Assembly (NCBI GenBank): GCA_003279705.1
Contig: QCGZ01000002.1
Location: 91,266 to 155,265 of the forward strand
DNA from: OCS116 cluster bacterium AG-390-I16
Lineage (GTDB): Bacteria > Pseudomonadota > Alphaproteobacteria > MED-G09
Reading direction: 5' to 3'
DNA: 64,000 nucleotides
In this document: in pieces, positions 21,630-30,750 of the stretch
Layout of the letters: every line of letters starts with the position of its first letter
Position numbering within the stretch: position 1 is the stretch's first letter
Made by a program: the position numbers and the translations under genes
The notes under the pieces: model-generated
Told to the model about the DNA's origin: nothing
The model's input: the letters and a program-made list of their open reading frames with translations, nothing else
Database searches by the model: none

Positions 21630-22079
21630 TTAGTTTGAGAAATCTTTAAGCATTTTTTTCAATTCAAGGCTATGTTGCTCTTCTTGACCAATCATACCCC
21701 TTGTATACTCCTCAAGGTAAACTGACGCATCTTCAACACAAGCAAGTAATTTTTTATAGAGATTTAGTGCATGAACTTCATGCTCTAAGCTTTCATTTAA
21801 TATATCTTGAATAGAATGCCTATTGCTCTCTTTAATTTTCGCTATTTTTTGACTTGGATGACCGTCTAAGCCAGTAATTAGTTCACCTGCCTGTTGGGCA
21901 TGTAAAAGAGATTCGTTTGCTTGGGCTTGAAGAAATTCAACAATTGGAATTCTATTAGGACCTGAAACCATAAGAGAAGAGTGAGTATATCTAACTACAC
22001 CTGCTAGCTCATATTCCATAATTTCATTTAGTATTTCACATACTTCATTTTCATTTAAGTCTTTCATAATGTTCTCCAA
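21630..22079 (-). CDS. Bacterioferritin-like di-iron protein
   Basis: Four-helix ferritin pattern with ferroxidase ligand contexts EYELAG, ANESLLHA, LEHEVHA, GQEEQHSLE. By eye, the residue at the Bfr heme-Met position is Leu. Confidence 0.65.
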   Translation of the reverse strand: MENIMKDLNENEVCEILNEIMEYELAGVVRYTHSSLMVSGPNRIPIVEFLQAQANESLLHAQQAGELITGLDGHPSQKIAKIKESNRHSIQDILNESLEHEVHALNLYKKLLACVEDASVYLEEYTRGMIGQEEQHSLELKKMLKDFSN

Positions 22080-22914: not shown

Positions 22915-24216
22915 CTAAAGCTCTATTTTGTCAGCTGTGGGCATAACATCACTTCCCAATTCACTATTTTTCTTTTGTTTGAAAGCATTCAGATCTCCAA
23001 TCGATGCTTGCCAAGTATAGAAATAATCCCGCCCCTCTATAGGAACAGGAAAACAACCAAAACCTATTGGTAACACTGCAAATTCTCCTTCGAACTCACC
23101 AACTAAATATCTATCAAGAAAATCAACATAAATATCTTTTTTTTCTATGGGCACTATATCAAAAAAAGGTATCGCATCTCGTTTATTATTGATTTGAGAT
23201 AAAATTTCAGCTGGAAATAGCCCACCAGTCCATCGAGCATTTATTTCGGTAACTGATATCTCTCCATTTTTACCAATAAAAAAATCTATTCCACAATTAC
23301 TCCCCTCAGGGCTAAAATAACCATGATAACGAGCATACTCTCCAACTTTAATTAATATTTCTCGATGCTCAGGGGATACTTTAACTGACTCTGATATAAG
23401 GTTACCCACCCAAAGGCCATCTGCAAAAAGAATTTTTCTTGTATTTGCAATTCTTATATTTTCTTCATTTATACAAAGATCAACCGTCATCTCGGTAAAA
23501 TTTGTCAAATCAAGTTTCTCTTGAAGCAAGATTATCATTGTATCATCATACTCATCTACATATAGGCTTGCCTCCTTAATACTGCTTATAGCAGCCACAT
23601 TTCTTGATCCCGCTAAACCTAAAAGCTTTATAATTATTTGATTACTATGTTTTAAAAAGAAATCAGTGACTTTTTGACTTTCAAGTTCTGACTTTTTGAC
23701 AATTATCGTATCTGGAGTTGGAATTCCAAAGCTTGGAGCATTCTCAGCAAAATGTTTTTTTGAATTTACATTTCTATTTATCTCCAAGAGTTTTTCATTT
23801 TTATGAATCACCGCATTTGAACCACTTGTCATATATAAATTCACAACATCTACAAAGCCTTCATTTTGATTTGCGTATTTAGCAACAGACTCATAGAAAT
23901 TAGACTTAGGGTGATAACTATAGTTTTCCAAAGGTATTACCTCGTCTACAAGACGTTTATAAAAATCGTGATAACGAATAAGGATTTTATTCCACTCAGG
24001 ACTTTTATATGCGTTATAAACTGCTAAATGATCATGCGAACTACCAACACATGTCAATGCTATTTGTAACATTGAGGTAAGTTCGACATTTGAAAGATGG
24101 TCTGCTTTTTGCTTTTCAGTTAGGTTTTCAAGATCAAAAAAAAGCGAACAATCATCTCCCGCCATTGCGAAGAGTGAAGAGTATTTTAAACTTGGAAAAA
24201 AAGAACCTGCTTTCAT
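22915..24216 (-). CDS. ATP-grasp-fold enzyme of unknown specificity
   Basis: 433 aa. The C-terminal half has the ATP-grasp core pattern (IIIKLLGLAGSRNV..., LLQEKLDL, CGIDFFIGKNGEISVTEINARWTGG). The N-terminal roughly 150 aa is unrecognised. Confidence 0.5.
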   Translation of the reverse strand: MKAGSFFPSLKYSSLFAMAGDDCSLFFDLENLTEKQKADHLSNVELTSMLQIALTCVGSSHDHLAVYNAYKSPEWNKILIRYHDFYKRLVDEVIPLENYSYHPKSNFYESVAKYANQNEGFVDVVNLYMTSGSNAVIHKNEKLLEINRNVNSKKHFAENAPSFGIPTPDTIIVKKSELESQKVTDFFLKHSNQIIIKLLGLAGSRNVAAISSIKEASLYVDEYDDTMIILLQEKLDLTNFTEMTVDLCINEENIRIANTRKILFADGLWVGNLISESVKVSPEHREILIKVGEYARYHGYFSPEGSNCGIDFFIGKNGEISVTEINARWTGGLFPAEILSQINNKRDAIPFFDIVPIEKKDIYVDFLDRYLVGEFEGEFAVLPIGFGCFPVPIEGRDYFYTWQASIGDLNAFKQKKNSELGSDVMPTADKIEL

Positions 24217-25003: not shown

Positions 25004-25095
25004 TTAAGTCTCCATTTAAATTTTTTTATAATAAACATTTTAATATCTTGATTGAAAGATGGTTTAATAAAAGTAATATATGGCTAGGGGAAATT

Positions 25096-25494
25096 ATGGA
25101 AAAAATTTTAAAACTTCCAAGAGGAATTAAAGAAAAAATCACTTTAATAGGTTTGTCAGTTTTTTTTATTTATTTTGGCATCGATCATTTTGTAAATCCT
25201 AATTTTTACCTTTCTATAATGCCACCATCATTTCCTCTTCACGAGGAGGCAGTTTATATCAGTGGATTTTTTGAAATTACAGGTGGTCTTGGTTTATTGA
25301 TACATCGCTTTCGTAAAATTGCTGGATGGGGATTGTTTGCTCTTTTAATAGCTGTTTACCCTGCAAATATTTATATGGCAATTACCCCAGATGCATTTCC
25401 TGAAATTCCTATTTTTATGCTTTATTTTAGGCTTGTACTTCAGTTTATCTTTTTTTACTGGGCATATACAGTAACAAAAGAGAGTTATAATTAA
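25096..25494 (+). CDS. DoxX-like small membrane protein
   Basis: 4 TM. GIDHFVNPNFYLSIMPPSFP...ISGFFEITGGLGLL...AVYPANIYMA pattern. I prefer the ATG at 25096 to the TTG at 25048. Confidence 0.5.
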   Translation: MEKILKLPRGIKEKITLIGLSVFFIYFGIDHFVNPNFYLSIMPPSFPLHEEAVYISGFFEITGGLGLLIHRFRKIAGWGLFALLIAVYPANIYMAITPDAFPEIPIFMLYFRLVLQFIFFYWAYTVTKESYN

Positions 25495-25503
25495 AATAAA
25501 AAA

Positions 25504-25529
25504 ATGCCCAGGGTTTTAAGCCTGGGCAT
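25504..25529. terminator. Bidirectional stem-loop between convergent genes
   Basis: ATGCCCAGG-gttttaag-CCTGGGCAT is a perfect 9-bp GC-rich stem. An A-run lies upstream (25495-25504). It sits between the DoxX-like (+) and TonB-dependent receptor (-) stops. Confidence 0.5.
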
Positions 25530-25558
25530 CAATCTTAAATATAAAATTCAATATTTAA

Positions 25559-27988
25559 TTAAAACTTATAGTTTAACTTCAAACCAAAATTTCTACCTGG
25601 AAGCGGAACTTCATTCTTAACGAAAGAAGAATGATTTCTCGCAACCTCATCAAGAAGATTTCTGCCAAGCAATGATAAGCTTATTTCATTTAGGTTGTTA
25701 AGAACAAAAGTTTTTCTTAAAGAAAAATCAAGCATCTCATAGGCTTCAGTCATTGTTTCCCCTTCACCTATATCATTTTGCTTCTCAACATCTTTATAAG
25801 TGAGTTTCGCTGAGAGGTTATCTTCAGAATAAGAAAGAGAAAGAATATTCCTCGCAGGTACAATTCTTGGAATATTCATACCATTTTTAAATTCACCCGT
25901 TACGGAATCTCTTCCAAGAGATAAAGTAAAATTTCCTCTATCAAAGTTGAAAACTTGACTTACTTCAATCTCATAGCCTTCTAATTCAGCATCTTTTTGA
26001 AGAAAGTTTGCTAGAATTAAACCACCATGATCATCATGATCACCATGTTCTTCATGTTCTTCATGTTCTTCTTCGGTTTCATCTTGAAGATAGATATAAT
26101 TATCAATGTTATTTTTGAAAATATTACCTCTAAAAGAGAAGTTGCTATTTTGATAATATATATTCAAATCAATATTATTAGCTTTTTCAGACTCTAGATT
26201 AGTATTGCCAACCTCAAATCGACCAGTAACAAGATGTGCTCCGTTCATAAATAATTCAACTGGAGCAGGTGCTCTTTCAACCATAGAAAGGCCTAAACTT
26301 AATGTTAAGCCATCTGTAACATCGCGAGATAAATTAACAGCAAAACTTGTTTCACTAAAATCTCTGTTGAAATACTCTATCTCTTCCTCATGTTCGTCTT
26401 CGTCATGATGTTCGTCTTCGTCATGATGTTCGTCTTCGTCATGGTGCTCTTCTTCGTCATGATGTTCGTCTTCGTCATGATGCTCTTCTTCATGAGCAAT
26501 TGAACCTTTTCTTGAAATATCATCATATCTAATACCAAAATCAAGATGGAACAAATCAAATTCTTTTGATAGATAATAACCTACAGACATTTCTTCATTA
26601 TCTGTTGGTCTCATAAATGCTTCAGCGCCTATTATTGATATTTCCTCTTCAACATAATTGATAGAAAGTTTTTGATCTGCAAAAGTATTTGAAATATCAA
26701 AGATAAATCCAAATTCTTTTGATTTATTCTCAAAATTTGTTGGCCCCTCTGCATGACCATGCTCATCATGTTCGTCTTCGTCATGATGTTCTTCTTCGTC
26801 ATGATGTTCTTCTTCGTCATGATGTTCTTCTTCAGCATGCTGTTCAGTATGAAGATAATCTGAAGATCTGAAAAAATAATTAATCTTTTTCAAAAATGAG
26901 TTATTGACCAAATATGAACCTTCAACATCAAAGATATCAGACTCTGTATTAGAAAAAATTCTTTCACCCTCATGCTCGTCTTTAGCATGATGTTCTTCTT
27001 CGTCATGATGTTCATCTTCTTCATGATGTGCTTCTTCATCATGATGCTCGTCTTCGTCATGCATACCATGATCTTCGTGACCTTCACCATGGAAAGGAAC
27101 TCCAAAAAGACTTTCAGAGTTTCTATATGAAAGGCCAAAATGCCCCCATTCTCCTGTCTTAGAAATTCCAAATCTTTGGGTGGTTGACTCAAAGTCAGAA
27201 TTCTCTAAGTACCCAAGATTTTCTTCGTCATGATGCTCGTCTTCGTCATGATGCTCGTCTTCGTCATGATGTTCCTCTTCATCATGATGTTCTTCTTCGT
27301 CATGATGTTCATCTTCCATATGAATTATTGCACCATTAGGAATATCATAATTATCGAACTGAGAGTCTTTATATGCTAAACTTACATTAAAACCACCAAA
27401 ATTGTTTTGATATGAAATACTTCCAGACTCTCCATCATTAACAGACTGGCCTTCTAGTCCAATATTCAGTTTTGCATCTTTAAAATCTTCTCTAGCAATT
27501 GTATTATCAATAATGTTAACAATACCTCCAATAGTTCCACTAGAATACAATAAAGATGATGGTCCTCTAACTATTTCAACTTGTTGAATATTATTTAAAT
27601 CTACCTCATTCATGTGATCATCGCCAATGGTTGAAACATCTCGTAAGGTTCTCCCATTGTTCATAATTCTCACTCTATTGCCTGATAAACCTCTAATGAT
27701 AGGATGACCAACGGCGGAACCAAAATCTGATGACTGGACACCAAGAAGGTTATCTAGTGACTCACCCAAGCTAAGTGTTGTATCAAAAATTGTATCATTA
27801 CCATCAACAATATGAATTGGATCATCAAGATCTGAAAGATTTGTATCTATATATGATGAAGTAACTACTATCTCATCCGTTCCACTTGAAACATCAACGG
27901 TTTCATCAGCATATAAAAATTTACTGTGTATTGTTAAAGCACCCACAAGTAAAAGTACTGTAATTAAATTTTTCAATTTAAACTCCAT
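25559..27988 (-). CDS. TonB-dependent outer-membrane receptor with five His/Asp/Glu-rich repeat inserts
   Basis: 809 aa. Signal peptide, plug domain (HPIIRGLSGNRVRIMNNG, VEIVRGPSSLLYSSGTIGGIVNII), C-terminal barrel strand GRNFGLKLNYKF. Five inserts of HHDE[DE]E repeats (listed as separate repeat features). Confidence 0.85.
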   Translation of the reverse strand: MEFKLKNLITVLLLVGALTIHSKFLYADETVDVSSGTDEIVVTSSYIDTNLSDLDDPIHIVDGNDTIFDTTLSLGESLDNLLGVQSSDFGSAVGHPIIRGLSGNRVRIMNNGRTLRDVSTIGDDHMNEVDLNNIQQVEIVRGPSSLLYSSGTIGGIVNIIDNTIAREDFKDAKLNIGLEGQSVNDGESGSISYQNNFGGFNVSLAYKDSQFDNYDIPNGAIIHMEDEHHDEEEHHDEEEHHDEDEHHDEDEHHDEENLGYLENSDFESTTQRFGISKTGEWGHFGLSYRNSESLFGVPFHGEGHEDHGMHDEDEHHDEEAHHEEDEHHDEEEHHAKDEHEGERIFSNTESDIFDVEGSYLVNNSFLKKINYFFRSSDYLHTEQHAEEEHHDEEEHHDEEEHHDEDEHDEHGHAEGPTNFENKSKEFGFIFDISNTFADQKLSINYVEEEISIIGAEAFMRPTDNEEMSVGYYLSKEFDLFHLDFGIRYDDISRKGSIAHEEEHHDEDEHHDEEEHHDEDEHHDEDEHHDEDEHEEEIEYFNRDFSETSFAVNLSRDVTDGLTLSLGLSMVERAPAPVELFMNGAHLVTGRFEVGNTNLESEKANNIDLNIYYQNSNFSFRGNIFKNNIDNYIYLQDETEEEHEEHEEHGDHDDHGGLILANFLQKDAELEGYEIEVSQVFNFDRGNFTLSLGRDSVTGEFKNGMNIPRIVPARNILSLSYSEDNLSAKLTYKDVEKQNDIGEGETMTEAYEMLDFSLRKTFVLNNLNEISLSLLGRNLLDEVARNHSSFVKNEVPLPGRNFGLKLNYKF
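26021..26083 (-). repeat. HDE-rich coding repeat block 5 (DETEEEHEEHEEHGDHDDHGG)
   Basis: Read directly by reverse-complementing 26021-26083. 21 codons, 5 His. Confidence 0.9.
26381..26497 (-). repeat. HDE-rich coding repeat block 4 (AHEEEHHDEDEHHDEEEHHDEDEHHDEDEHHDEDEHEEE)
   Basis: 39 codons, 12 His. 18-nt period (catcatgacgaagacgaa). Confidence 0.9.
26747..26851 (-). repeat. HDE-rich coding repeat block 3 (HTEQHAEEEHHDEEEHHDEEEHHDEDEHDEHGHAE)
   Basis: 35 codons, 11 His. 18-nt period. Confidence 0.9.
26963..27091 (-). repeat. HDE-rich coding repeat block 2 (HGEGHEDHGMHDEDEHHDEEAHHEEDEHHDEEEHHAKDEHEGE)
   Basis: 43 codons, 13 His. Confidence 0.9.
27221..27322 (-). repeat. HDE-rich coding repeat block 1 (HMEDEHHDEEEHHDEEEHHDEDEHHDEDEHHDEE)
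   Basis: 34 codons, 11 His. Five consecutive HHDExE hexapeptides. Confidence 0.9.
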
Positions 27989-28011
27989 ATTAAAAGTTAA
28001 TAAAAAAGAAT

Positions 28012-28293
28012 TTAAATTTTAGGGGGAGCTCGTGAATGAAAGGTTGTATAAAATTGGGGAGTAAAATTATCTAGATTTTTAAAATTACTTAAATCAGATA
28101 AAAATAACGTCTTCGAAGGAATATCAATAATGTCTTCAAATAAATCATTGATACAAAAATGACACTCTTCTTCAGAATGATTAGTATCATATTCTTCATG
28201 GTAGTGAGTTTCTATAGAAGAAATAGATAGAAAGAAAATTCCTATTAGAATTACTAAATATTTTTTATTAAATAGATTGATAAATTTATTCAT
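28012..28293 (-). CDS. Small exported/anchored His- and Cys-rich protein
   Basis: 93 aa. N-terminal hydrophobic segment (YLVILIGIFFLSISS), then THYHEEYDTNHSEEECHFC. The start overlaps the upstream MerC-like stop by 8 nt, and the ORF ends 23 nt before the receptor start. Confidence 0.5.
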   Translation of the reverse strand: MNKFINLFNKKYLVILIGIFFLSISSIETHYHEEYDTNHSEEECHFCINDLFEDIIDIPSKTLFLSDLSNFKNLDNFTPQFYTTFHSRAPPKI

Positions 28294-28696
28294 GACAATC
28301 GCATTCTAAATGATTACAAAGTTTGTAATTTTTATAATGAGAAAATGTTATTAAAAAAGACCCTACAATTGTTAATAAAATCTCTCCAGAAATGATTTTT
28401 ATTGGTAATTCTATTAATAATGCAGAAACTAAAATTGCTAGCCCAAGTAATCCAACAAAAAATATAAAAGAATTTTTATGATTATTTAAACCAACTATTA
28501 AGGCAAAAGAACTTATAGGAACCACTAAAAATAGAAGCATGTAATGAATTAATTCACTATTTAATGTTATAGATATGAAACTAGATAGTGCGACCATAAG
28601 GGAGGGAAATAAAAGACAGTGAAATAAACAAAGCACTGAAATACCTACTGAAACTTTATCAGAAACCTTTTGTGCATCTATTAATTGTGCAAACAT
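28286..28696 (-). CDS. MerC-like inner-membrane metal-transport protein
   Basis: 136 aa, 4 TM. The first TM carries LCLFHCLLFP (C-x2-H-C), analogous to the MerC TM1 Cys pair. Cytoplasmic tail CNHLECDCHE. Family assignment from memory. Confidence 0.55.
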   Translation of the reverse strand: MFAQLIDAQKVSDKVSVGISVLCLFHCLLFPSLMVALSSFISITLNSELIHYMLLFLVVPISSFALIVGLNNHKNSFIFFVGLLGLAILVSALLIELPIKIISGEILLTIVGSFLITFSHYKNYKLCNHLECDCHE

Positions 28697-28858
28697 ATCC
28701 CACTCAGCTTTATAAAATAATATAAAATAATATTTTTAAAGTAATTTTAAGTTATTTAATATTATTTATGCTCATTTTGCCCATAACACAAGTATATAAT
28801 TGTGATTAAAACTAAACATTTAAACCTTATCATCAAAATGGTTTTTCTGTGGAAGGAA

Positions 28859-28933
28859 TGGTAGTCCCTAGGGGAATCGAACCCCTCTTTCCAGGTTGAA
28901 AACCTGGCGTCCTAACCGATAGACGAAGGGACC
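28859..28933 (-). tRNA. tRNA-Glu (anticodon UUC)
   Basis: Hand fold: GGTCCCT TC GTC TATCGGTTAGGAC GCCAGG TTTTCAA CCTGG AAAG AGGGG TTCGATT CCCCT AGGGACT A CCA. G1-U72 wobble. Close to my recollection of E. coli tRNA-Glu. Confidence 0.9.
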
Positions 28934-28965
28934 AAAGTTTATAAAACTTATATAAGTGTAAATTC

Positions 28966-30750
28966 CTAAGCTGTAAAGAGGTCTCTAATATGAAATTGTA
29001 CGGCTTTATTACCCTGCCAATCATTTTTTTTAATAACACCGGCAAAGTGTAACAATGATCCAGAATGATTCATTATAATATCACCCAAAGGAGTACCTTT
29101 TGAGCTAAAGGCAATTGCATCAATATTCCCATAATTTGCATTAGAAATTTTAATTTTAAGGTGACCATTTCCTACCTCAGACCAATAATCAATTTTTGCA
29201 TTTTTAATGATAAATTGCGGCTCAGGATTGCCTTGACCATAAGGAGAAGCTACTTCAACTAAATTATATAAGTTTCTGTTAATATTAGAAGAATCTATTA
29301 TATCATCATAATAATTTATCTTATTTAATGTAGTGTTATTTGATTGCAAATATACTTCTTCCTCACAAAATTCCTTAAAATCATCAAAAGTATCGTTATT
29401 AAGTGAAAAACCAGCAGCCATTTTGTGACCACCACCTGATATAAGTAAATTTTTATTAACAGCCTTTATTATGAGCTTACCAATATCTATTCCAGAGATA
29501 GATCTTGCAGATCCAGTAAGTCTTCCTTCAGAAAAACTTATAACAAAAGATGGTCTGTAATATTTATCCTTAAGTCTACTAGCAACAATACCTAAAACTC
29601 CCAAATGCCAATTTTTACCTGAAACAATTAGTGAATTAGGAATAATATTTAATTTTTTATTTATAATATTAGCTTCAACATCATTAATAGCTTCAAAAAG
29701 TACTGTTTCTTCAATATTTTGCCTTTGTTTATTTAAATTATTTAATCTTTCAGAAATAGCTAAAACCTCGTCTTCATTTCTTGATGTGAGCAATCTAAAA
29801 CCTAGATCTGAAGATCCAGTCCTTCCTGCCGCGTTTATTCTTGGACCAATTCTGTAACCAAGCTCAGTAATACCTATATCTTTAGATCCTGAAACAGATC
29901 TTAATCCTTCGATACCAAGGCGAGGGTTTCTTGAAATTACATCAATACCCTCTTTTACAAAGGCTCTATTAAGGCCTTTTAACTGAACAACATCACAAAC
30001 AGTTCCCAAAGCAACCAAATCTAAGTATTGTTTTAATGATGGCTCTTGTGTGTCTGGAAAAATATTCTTATCCCTTATGGCTCTTCTTAATCCGACGACA
30101 AAGATGAAAGTAAGACCAACAGCAGCCAAATCATTTAAACCGGAATTATCTTCATTTCTTGAGGGATTAATATGTGCATAAGACTCAGGAAGTTGGTTAT
30201 CAACTTTATGATGATCTATTATTATTGAGTTCATGCCTTTTGAGACTGCATAAATCATTGGTTCAATAGAGGTTGCGCCACAATCAACAGTAATAAAAGT
30301 ATTAATTCCGTTATCATAAAAAAAATCAATTGCAGATTTATTGGGCCCATAGCCCTCTTTTAAACGATCAGGTATGTATATTTCGGTTTTCACACCATAA
30401 TGATCAAAAAATAATTTTAATATTGAAGATGATGTTGCTCCATCTACATCATAGTCACCCAAAATACCAATTTTTTCTTTTTTTGATATACATTCAGCAA
30501 TAAAATCAACACCTTTATCAAGGTCAAATAACTTACTTGGATCCAAAATTAACTTATTCACTTCAGGATTTAAAAAAGAGTCAACATCAGAGGAATGAAT
30601 TTCTCTTCCAGCAAGAATTTTGGCTAGTAATTTAGGGATTTTATTTTCATTTTCAATACTAGATATTTTTTCTAAATCCGATACTCTTTCTTTCCAAAGA
30701 GATCCCTTAGCAGAAAATTTATTTTCTAAAAAAGATCCGTTATTTGTCAT
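28966..30750 (-). CDS. recJ: Single-stranded-DNA-specific exonuclease RecJ
   Basis: 594 aa. DHH motifs GDYDVDGATSS, TVDCG, IIIDHHK, and DHHA1 GGGHKMAAG. Confidence 0.9.
   Translation of the reverse strand: MTNNGSFLENKFSAKGSLWKERVSDLEKISSIENENKIPKLLAKILAGREIHSSDVDSFLNPEVNKLILDPSKLFDLDKGVDFIAECISKKEKIGILGDYDVDGATSSSILKLFFDHYGVKTEIYIPDRLKEGYGPNKSAIDFFYDNGINTFITVDCGATSIEPMIYAVSKGMNSIIIDHHKVDNQLPESYAHINPSRNEDNSGLNDLAAVGLTFIFVVGLRRAIRDKNIFPDTQEPSLKQYLDLVALGTVCDVVQLKGLNRAFVKEGIDVISRNPRLGIEGLRSVSGSKDIGITELGYRIGPRINAAGRTGSSDLGFRLLTSRNEDEVLAISERLNNLNKQRQNIEETVLFEAINDVEANIINKKLNIIPNSLIVSGKNWHLGVLGIVASRLKDKYYRPSFVISFSEGRLTGSARSISGIDIGKLIIKAVNKNLLISGGGHKMAAGFSLNNDTFDDFKEFCEEEVYLQSNNTTLNKINYYDDIIDSSNINRNLYNLVEVASPYGQGNPEPQFIIKNAKIDYWSEVGNGHLKIKISNANYGNIDAIAFSSKGTPLGDIIMNHSGSLLHFAGVIKKNDWQGNKAVQFHIRDLFTA

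Follow-up and report, generated by a model that had tools for sequence, protein, structure and literature searches.

Free zinc and copper stand at picomolar concentrations in the surface ocean, and to our knowledge the ways in which the most abundant marine heterotrophic bacteria acquire these metals are poorly known. A locus of OCS116 cluster bacterium AG-390-I16, a PS1-clade/OCS116 alphaproteobacterium, raises the question of what is served by a TonB-dependent receptor whose barrel is interrupted five times by long runs of His, Asp, and Glu, and of how the synthesis of such a protein is controlled. The locus lies in a stretch of 64,000 nucleotides (GenBank assembly GCA_003279705.1, contig QCGZ01000002.1, positions 91,266 to 155,265 of the forward strand), which is referred to here as the window and whose own numbering is used throughout. 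A preliminary description, made from the letters of the window, had interpreted the inserts as a possible metal-scavenging antenna. Our analysis leads us to propose, at a probability of roughly 0.6, that the receptor gene belongs to a three-gene envelope metal-uptake operon comprising a ZnuD-like capture receptor, a MerC-like carrier, and a leader-peptide switch.

A ZnuD-like receptor with five His/Asp/Glu-rich inserts

The open reading frame (ORF) of the receptor (25559..27988, minus strand) encodes 809 aa when read from the ATG at 27988. A Pfam scan recognized both the plug at aa 69–156 (PF07715; 27521..27784, minus strand; E = 4e-17; 63 bits against a cut-off of 23.9) and the barrel (PF00593; 94.5 bits against a cut-off of 27). 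The N-terminus forms a hydrophobic leader, with a signal peptide at aa 1–27, and is followed in the translation by the TonB-box-like segment DEIVVTSS (aa 38–45; 27854..27877, minus strand), whose resemblance to the consensus, exemplified by DTLVVTA of BtuB, was judged by eye. At the other end the protein closes with ...NYKF, an aromatic last residue, so that the signal peptide, plug, and C-terminal Phe named in the preliminary description agree with these features. The whole protein contains 60 His and no Cys. From sequence comparison, translation probably begins at a TTG at 27976 (27974–27976), yielding 805 aa, because all close PS1-clade relatives begin at the same TTG, preceded by GGAG or AGGAG, and because the position of the window ATG reads ACG in L005, a fetched locus 92% identical to the window. 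In the window itself, a GGAG Shine-Dalgarno (SD) sequence at 27983–27986 precedes this TTG, and the ATG overlaps it.

Judged by sequence and by modeled fold, the nearest characterized relative of the receptor is ZnuD. ZnuD-type receptors had been named at the outset for their one short His/Asp-rich surface loop, and the profile hidden Markov model search then recommended for finding the closest subfamily returned ZnuD (NF038289) as the best NCBIfam model (7e-59, 200 bits); OprC-type models were absent among the 25 best NCBIfam matches listed. The best sequence match in the PDB is likewise ZnuD of Neisseria meningitidis (4rdr; 1.7e-40 with the single sequence, 5.5e-59 with the family profile), and the matches that follow, Cir and BtuB, cover the plug only. 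With the receptor model as query, Foldseek placed ZnuD structures first (2.2e-29, TM-score up to 0.75 on the target) and OprC second. Membership of the receptor in the OprC/CrtA group was considered as well and is ruled out by the lack of Cys, together with a match of only 4e-6, confined to the plug region, to PDB chain 9rvq_A, which we take to be the CrtA structure.

The five inserts, whose boundaries were set by a sliding-window count of His, Asp, and Glu on the translation, are far beyond chance. Their combined 169 aa include 51 His and 102 Asp/Glu (90.5% H+D+E), compared with 9 His and 15.6% H+D+E in the remaining 640 aa, and the earlier hand counts of 172 of 809 aa and about 52 His come very close to this. 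All lie on the minus strand: insert 1 spans aa 223–256 (34 aa; 27221..27322), insert 2 aa 302–342 (41 aa; 26963..27085), insert 3 aa 380–414 (35 aa; 26747..26851), insert 4 aa 499–538 (40 aa; 26375..26494), and insert 5 aa 636–654 (19 aa; 26027..26083). The lengths given previously (34, 43, 35, 39, and 21 aa) differ from these only in boundary placement. The receptor contains 13 exact matches to the motif HHDE[DE]E. At the DNA level, inserts 1–4 are 18-nt tandem repeats of 4.2–5.7 copies (5.3 in insert 1) with 84–92% matches and one unit common to all four, and insert 5 is built of a 9/18-nt repeat. Ten of 13 terminator-like matches lie within the receptor gene on the opposite strand (26401–27307, plus strand) and are artefacts of the 18-nt repeats.

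The structure, which is predicted rather than solved, was obtained with AlphaFold2 on an alignment of 29 family members. It shows a barrel of 22 strands with a predicted local distance difference test (pLDDT) score of 70–87 and turns of 2–7 aa, whereas the inserts score below 50, as expected of disordered loops. Whether strands are counted from the first or from the last, inserts 1–5 occupy the odd-to-even connections 3–4, 5–6, 7–8, 11–12, and 15–16. In TonB-dependent receptors, the periplasm is the side from which the plug enters and on which the C-terminus lies; therefore, odd-to-even connections are extracellular, and the model places all five inserts in the extracellular loops L2, L3, L4, L6, and L8. 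The structure prediction that the preliminary description had called for thus puts them neither in periplasmic turns nor in the plug.

The comparison with ZnuD extends to three of the four ligands of a buried metal site. In ZnuD, zinc is held by Asp99, His100, Glu340, and His499 (PMC4557270, Calmettes et al. 2015). In alignments with 4rdr, for which the offset between chain and published numbering was fixed by the HSHEYDD cluster, Asp99-His100 fall on D124-H125 of the receptor plug (27614–27619, minus strand), and His499 falls on H585 (26234..26236, minus strand), located in the motif NGAHLVTG of the loop after strand 13. D124, H125, and H585 are invariant in the 29-member family alignment, and a conserved single-ion site of this kind would favor an ion over a large chelate as the imported substrate. 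Moreover, insert 2 begins exactly where the ZnuD loop-3 cluster HSHEYDD aligns, so that both proteins, each a 22-strand barrel with a plug (4RDR/4RDT/4RVW for ZnuD), carry a flexible His/Asp/Glu-rich loop 3 at the same position. Loop 3 of ZnuD has been shown to bind Cd/Zn and was modeled as a capture "fishing net" (PMC4557270), which is essentially what the antenna idea had envisaged for the present receptor.

The two proteins also differ in several respects. ZnuD has two clusters of 11 aa in one loop, cluster 1 containing a Cys, whereas the receptor has five repeat-built tracts of 19–41 aa in five loops and is devoid of Cys. ZnuD is repressed by Zur, whereas the receptor is preceded by a leader peptide instead and no Zur box was found. 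ZnuD belongs to host-restricted pathogens, whereas the hosts of the receptor family are free-living and marine. Flexible His/Asp/Glu-rich segments are also present on the metal-handling proteins ZnuA, ZinT, and RcnA, and a lineage-specific expansion of the His-rich segment of RcnA has been noted in cable bacteria; however, these proteins carry one periplasmic or cytoplasmic segment each, not multiple surface loops on an outer-membrane barrel.

Spread of the five-loop form

The five-loop architecture had not been recognized as one already described. The family comparison shows that it is not peculiar to this genome, since it is the standard form of a large family in PS1/OCS116, SAR86, SAR92, and Woeseiaceae. 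More than 4,500 database proteins match the receptor, and all 40 of the top matches inspected carry five His-rich segments at the same places. Among 82 complete receptor genes from named genomes, which belong to PS1/OCS116, SAR92/Porticoccaceae (including the cultured HTCC2207, L015), SAR86, Woeseiaceae, and Luminiphilus, five segments are present in 63, four in 10, and fewer in 9. A search of 1.84 billion cluster representatives yielded 1,421 relatives at E <= 1e-30; five segments were found only in the three closest clusters, and farther out the number ranges from 0 to 4, with two (L2 + L3) being common. The proposed survey of homologues therefore gives a continuum of 0–5 loops of varying length.

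The composition of the inserts is kept throughout the family, with a His every 3–6 residues in an acidic matrix, whereas the repeat unit varies by lineage (HHDEEE, HEGEE, HDDEE, and others) and, among close PS1 relatives, insert lengths change in steps of 6 aa. This conservation of H/D/E composition under changing repeat units fits selection on chemistry, with length adjusted via repeat slippage.

Three members of the family deserve separate mention. P0266, a relative of 868 aa, has a single continuous tract of 164 His/Asp/Glu residues at the loop-3 position, which represents an extreme expansion of one loop. The receptor of L017 (L017:3983-6085) has one His-rich segment, and the reading frame upstream of it (L017:3603-3938) ends in RASP, not in the RAPP described below; by their sequences, the receptor loops and the arrest motif may have decayed together. 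Finally, L073, a contig of 2155 nt with a copy of the receptor, is binned in a metagenome-assembled genome of a Poseidoniales archaeon, an assignment that is almost certainly a binning error, given so short a contig.

A conserved, putative leader peptide upstream of the receptor

Directly upstream of the receptor lies a small upstream ORF (uORF) of 93 aa (28012..28293, minus strand), homologues of which also stand upstream of other receptors of the family. The window uORF, like the other members of the uORF alignment, starts with basic residues and continues with about 18 hydrophobic aa, a putative export signal. This segment is followed by H30, H32, and H39, by CHFC at aa 44–47 (28153–28164), by a spacer of 40 residues, and by RAPP at aa 88–91 (28021–28032), after which the peptide ends with K-I-stop. 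A comparable uORF occurs directly upstream of the receptor on the same strand in about 79 of 82 loci with upstream sequence. These peptides are very divergent (mean column identity 20%), and the only conserved columns are a His (>90%), the first Cys (invariant), and R-A-P-P. CXXC is present in 49 of 68 uORFs with a spacer of 40–43 residues, and the other 19, from Porticoccaceae, have C-x-x-S preceded by three His. Their tails read RAPP, RGPP, or, in SAR86, QAPP, with 1–8 aa left before the stop. The uORFs of L054, L056, L059, L060, L072, L077, L079, and L084, all from SAR86, and that of L016 end in S/A-Q-A-P-P.

This arrangement recalls a recently recognized type of regulator. In Bordetella pertussis, the CXXC motif of the DUF2946 protein CruR (Bp2923) senses copper, its RAPP motif arrests the ribosome, and the peptide thereby controls the receptor CrtA/BfrG (Roy et al. 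2022, PMC9426467). The arrest has been mapped to the Pro-Pro pair in the P and A sites, and a 2025 survey reported uORFs with signal sequences and RAPP/RGPP upstream of TonB-dependent receptors across Gram-negatives (both PMC12992588). On these sequence features and the analogy with known peptides, 28012–28293 is most likely a regulatory leader peptide of the CruR/CutF type, for which ribosome arrest is predicted. Two metal-ligand-rich envelope proteins had been described beside the receptor; the products of both neighboring genes are indeed rich in Cys and His, but one of them is most likely no structural protein of the envelope and, with its C-terminal RAPP, looks like a regulatory leader peptide. 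Its place in the CruR/CutF (DUF2946) family would be at most that of a divergent branch. DUF2946 was matched by 9 of 45 uORF members, with a best E of 9e-4 and every score below the gathering score, and was the only family matched repeatedly; a profile search of a set of 5.8 billion proteins gave 66 matches, none of which carried a Pfam label.

The uORF shares with CruR the form of a small, probably exported peptide directly upstream of a TonB-dependent receptor, with a CXXC motif, a fixed spacer, and RAPP near the stop. CruR acts in cis by ribosome arrest, and the uORF is likened to it from these features of the sequence. However, CruR has 145 aa, compared with 93 aa in the window, and its CXXC-RAPP spacing is 45 +/- 2 (PMC9426467), compared with 40 in the window and an equally tight 40–43 in the family. 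In addition, the uORF family has an extra conserved His, its arrest codons are predicted to pair with the downstream SD, a merC-like gene precedes the window uORF, which is therefore not the first gene, and the receptor under control is ZnuD-like, whereas in Bordetella it is CrtA, from a separate subfamily. The gap to the receptor gene also differs, being 162 nt with Rho-dependent termination in Bordetella, 23–35 nt in the window, and 33–91 nt in the family. Owing to this short gap, Rho-dependent termination in a long spacer is unlikely here.

The second point of comparison is CutF of the Rhodobacter capsulatus cutFOG operon (Ozturk et al. 2023, PMC9973294), which is an exported leader, as the uORF probably is too, with a Cys motif and a Pro-rich C-terminus and in which a stem-loop shields the SD of the next gene until it is opened by the paused ribosome. 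The Cys motif of CutF is CxxxC and its Pro-rich motif is weaker; moreover, its anti-SD lies in an intergenic stem-loop, whereas here it lies in the arrest codons themselves. In the presence of copper, CutF switches on a multicopper oxidase that serves detoxification. Given that the downstream gene is here an uptake receptor, the opposite polarity is expected.

Predicted pairing of the arrest codons with the receptor Shine-Dalgarno sequence

The arrest motif and the ribosome-binding site of the receptor are brought together in a predicted regulatory RNA hairpin (27974..28032, minus strand). In its minimum-free-energy fold, the Arg-Ala-Pro codons GAGCUCC pair with GGAGUUU, which contains the SD sequence GGAG (27983–27986) upstream of the TTG. 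When folding was extended to the family, the SD was paired in 57 of 61 loci; in 31 of the 61 its partner was the RAPP codons themselves, compared with 7 of 61 controls in which another stretch of the uORF was swapped in. Among the 47 loci with a short gap, the native duplex between arrest site and SD region beats that with the median unrelated partner in 43 (binomial p = 1.4e-9), and in 23 it outdoes at least 90% of unrelated partners. Such complementarity between RAPP codons and SD suggests that translation of the receptor is controlled by stalling.

The MerC-like gene and the operon

The third gene encodes a MerC-family inner-membrane protein of 136 aa (28286..28696, minus strand). Its Pfam match (PF03203, E = 6e-23) reaches 81.9 bits against a cut-off of 27.6 and covers profile positions 1–108 of 108, and the conserved features comprise C-x-x-H-C-x-x-x-P in the first transmembrane segment and a C-terminal C-x4-C-x-C-H tail. 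The MerC-like gene overlaps the start of the uORF by 8 nt, the receptor begins 23–35 nt after the uORF, and a hairpin resembling an intrinsic terminator (25503..25530, minus strand; 10-bp stem with 6 GC pairs, followed by a T-run) stands 29 nt past the receptor stop. The overlap, the short gap, and this strong terminator-like hairpin support the earlier assignment of the receptor to an operon with two other proteins.

MerC-like genes adjoin the receptor in 12–13 fetched loci, from PS1, SAR86, Woeseiaceae, and Cellvibrionales, where they stand upstream, downstream, or on the other strand. Linkage that persists through such rearrangement suggests a partner in function, the simplest role being the inner-membrane step. 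Apart from the uORF and the MerC-like gene, most of the recurrent neighbors follow lineage-specific synteny, and in a clustering of the neighborhoods of the fetched loci, genes for ABC transporters, PepSY proteins, Zur, or chaperones did not recur across lineages. In the 66 upstream regions examined (200 nt before the uORFs), no Fur box was found.

Proposed mechanism

From the gene order, the domains, the loop topology in the model, the conservation, the co-occurrence, and the RNA complementarity, we infer how the operon may work; the inference covers metal binding and the identity of the metal, the direction in which the switch acts, and the part played by the MerC-like protein. The receptor would be a transporter of the ZnuD family and import a divalent transition-metal ion, either free or loosely bound. 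Amplification of an 18-nt repeat would have expanded L2, L3, L4, L6, and L8 into disordered, strongly acidic poly-His tracts, which could serve as a capture net of low selectivity and high capacity that concentrates metal at the mouth of the barrel. From the loops, the metal would pass to the buried ZnuD-like site formed by Asp124-His125 of the plug and His585 of the loop, TonB-driven movement of the plug would admit the ion to the periplasm, and the MerC-like protein would be the likely carrier across the inner membrane.

The 93-aa leader peptide would govern expression of the receptor in cis. A ribosome translating the uORF would stall at RAPP, its P and A sites occupied by the Pro-Pro codon pair, and thereby keep the hairpin between the Ala-Pro-Pro codons and the SD open, leaving the SD free and the receptor translated. 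Binding of metal by the exported sensor part, with its His and CXXC, would release the arrest, the ribosome would terminate, and the hairpin would re-form, so that translation of the receptor would stop. This polarity is proposed by analogy, because of the presumed role in uptake and the precedent of CruR, and the RNA logic is taken from CutF.

Several observations weigh against this proposal. The receptor scores 200 bits with the ZnuD model, whose cut-off is 950, and it must therefore be a distant relative of ZnuD rather than an orthologue of the neisserial protein. The ZnuD ligand Glu340 has no mapped counterpart, HMMER having left ZnuD residues ~264–473 unaligned, and the plug is poorly modeled (pLDDT below 50) on a shallow alignment of 29 sequences. 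A MerC-like gene adjoins the receptor in only 12–13 of 84 fetched loci. DUF2946 (PF11162) was not detected in the window uORF by the Pfam scan even at E <= 10; consequently, the link to CruR and CutF is drawn from shared features, not from significant sequence similarity. Some SAR86 uORFs carry QAPP, a variant that may not arrest the ribosome, and every tested relative of the leader peptide senses copper. With respect to the hairpin, complementarity between CCN-CCN and GGAG is partly forced by the Pro-Pro codons, which pair with GGAGG in any case, and it is therefore mainly the locus-specific extension of the stem that speaks for the hairpin. In the class of loci with gaps of 68–91 nt, the SD pairs with the tail codons after RAPP rather than with RAPP itself; these codons are also covered by a ribosome arrested at Pro-Pro. 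Lastly, a Zur-like palindrome was found in 3 of the 66 upstream regions, compared with 0–2 in controls, using a simple palindrome pattern that may not be the motif of these lineages, and the lack of a consistent Zur-box-like site before the operons weakens the case for zinc. The only convincing palindrome among the 66 loci stands in L067 (Woeseiaceae), where the perfect Zur-box-like sequence GTTATATTATAAC lies 17–18 nt upstream of the uORF start; it could be a chance occurrence in AT-rich DNA.

Which metal is imported is the least settled part of the proposal, because the homology of the receptor points to zinc, whereas the characterized relatives of the regulator all sense copper. We place Zn(II) somewhat below even odds and copper at about one chance in three, and leave about one in five to nickel, cobalt, or a broad specificity. 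The case for zinc is made by ZnuD as the nearest relative with its conserved site, by the H/D/E chemistry typical of zinc-handling loops, and by the conserved His of the sensor, including uORFs with three His and one Cys. The copper version, which we regard as a serious contender though short of an even chance, would have the receptor import Cu(II)/Cu(I) to supply haem-copper oxidases, the leader act as a true CruR orthologue that shuts the operon at copper sufficiency, and the MerC-like protein move Cu(I), which is thiophilic, through the inner membrane. CruR, CutF, and CopL, the experimentally studied leaders that combine a Cys motif with a RAPP or other Pro-rich tail, all respond to copper, and copper receptors, among them OprC and CrtA, have cruR homologues upstream. 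CXXC is a classical copper site, MerC-family proteins handle soft metals, which their Cys motifs favor, and, following the Irving-Williams series, the affinity of poly-His is higher for Cu(II) than for Zn(II). OprC, the second-best fold match, and CrtA further resemble the receptor in TonB-dependent uptake of a transition metal, often with a cruR-type uORF upstream (OprC/NosA and CrtA; PMC8610252; PMC12914433). Nevertheless, OprC binds copper through Cys, Met, and His, whereas the receptor lacks Cys and its inserts are almost without Met, which leaves no CxxxM-HxM site of the OprC type. CrtA imports chelated copper via another conserved site and forms a separate sequence cluster (PMC12914433), and the receptor is far nearer to ZnuD (1.7e-40) than to the presumed CrtA chain 9rvq_A (4e-6, plug region only). 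Poly-His loops are not among the features described for either protein (PMC8610252; PMC12914433). On the side of the regulator, the conserved His of the sensor falls outside the DUF2946 signature, some uORFs lack the second Cys and have C-x-x-S with three His, and, according to the authors of the CutF study, CutF-like peptides are not all necessarily copper-specific (PMC9973294).

The remaining explanations depart further from uptake. Loops holding 51 His and 102 Asp/Glu might bind many ions per molecule, which would also suit a surface buffer that sequesters excess metal outside the cell for detoxification; with the polarity of CutF, where the same kind of SD-shielding hairpin lets metal turn the downstream gene on, metal would strengthen the arrest and induce the receptor. 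We consider this improbable, because the receptor retains what marks an importer, namely a complete TonB box, a plug, and buried ligands like those of ZnuD, the linkage is to an importer of the MerC type rather than to efflux genes, and the hosts (PS1, SAR86, and SAR92) are oligotrophs of the open ocean, where zinc and copper are scarce rather than toxic. Even less credible is a role of the loops unrelated to metal, in which fast-evolving low-complexity repeats would vary the surface to escape phages or grazers while the barrel takes up some other substrate, for example haem or an iron complex. TonB-dependent receptors often serve phages as receptors, the 18-nt repeats are prone to slippage and differ in copy number between close relatives, databases label the homologues "iron complex outermembrane receptor protein", and ZnuD resembles haem receptors. 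However, the H/D/E composition is held at the same five loops across alpha- and gammaproteobacteria despite differing units, a sign that selection acts on chemistry rather than on variability alone, the conserved regulator carries a Cys/His sensor, the Fur box is absent upstream (0/66), and the site equivalent to that of the receptor excludes haem in ZnuD.

Novelty and significance

The capture net of ZnuD loop 3 and the CruR/CutF leader peptides are already known. Literature searches yielded no description of multi-loop His-rich marine TonB receptors, and a search on MerC was swamped by "mercury" and "Merck". In the searchable literature we found neither the repeat-expanded form with five loops, nor its dominance among the major lineages of marine bacterioplankton, nor the near-universal pairing of the receptor with a distinct short-spacer His+Cys RAPP peptide, nor the hairpin between arrest codons and SD and the link to MerC. 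A bolder reading, which is speculative and which we think rather unlikely, is that these parts form an undescribed ocean-wide module of PS1, SAR86, and SAR92, the dominant heterotrophs of oligotrophic waters. Its poly-His antenna would draw zinc or copper, free or weakly bound, out of seawater without a metallophore, and a carrier of the MerC type would serve the inner membrane. Its regulator would constitute a new branch of arrest-peptide riboregulators, in which the RAPP codons are the anti-SD and the sensor has shifted from a copper-type CXXC to a His+Cys set that may read zinc.

The locus is thus less singular than first held, yet richer in mechanism. The receptor family is found in PS1/OCS116, SAR86, SAR92, and Woeseiaceae and in thousands of metagenomic homologues, and the hypothesis can be tested in the laboratory because the cultured HTCC2207 carries the receptor. 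If the three-gene uptake operon is real, it would extend the "fishing net" mechanism of ZnuD from pathogens to ocean biogeochemistry and provide metatranscriptomes with a gene marker of zinc or copper stress. It would also offer a compact, sequence-readable metal-sensing arrest peptide whose stalling codons double as anti-SD, and a natural series of 0–5 poly-His loops in which the effect of loop expansion on capture can be studied.

Other genes of the neighborhood

Convergent with the receptor gene, a DoxX/MauE-like membrane protein is encoded at 25048–25494 on the plus strand, with two Pfam matches (4.5e-5 and 1.6e-4) that are both below the cut-offs. Homologues with 70–83% identity occur near the receptor in the PS1 loci L005, L010, and L012 and in the gammaproteobacterial loci L063 (Woeseia sp.) and L067. 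This identity is unusually high for a comparison of alpha- with gammaproteobacteria and may therefore reflect a shared or transferred cassette. L002 and 17 other SAR86/SAR92 loci encode another TonB-dependent receptor (L002:10351-13665, up to 1104 aa in L002), which is unrelated to the His-rich one and follows it at a median distance of about 110 nt.

Farther from the operon, at a distance of about 3.5 kb, a ferritin-like protein is encoded at 21630–22079 on the minus strand (PF00210, 1.6e-17), and a ferritin gene is also found in the syntenic L001. For the ORF at 22915–24216 (minus strand, 433 aa), the Pfam scan gave no match at E <= 0.001. A tRNA-Glu(UUC) gene (28859–28933, minus strand) directly adjoins the operon on its upstream side, and the 70-aa ORF that overlaps it (28833–29045, minus strand) is most likely not a real gene.

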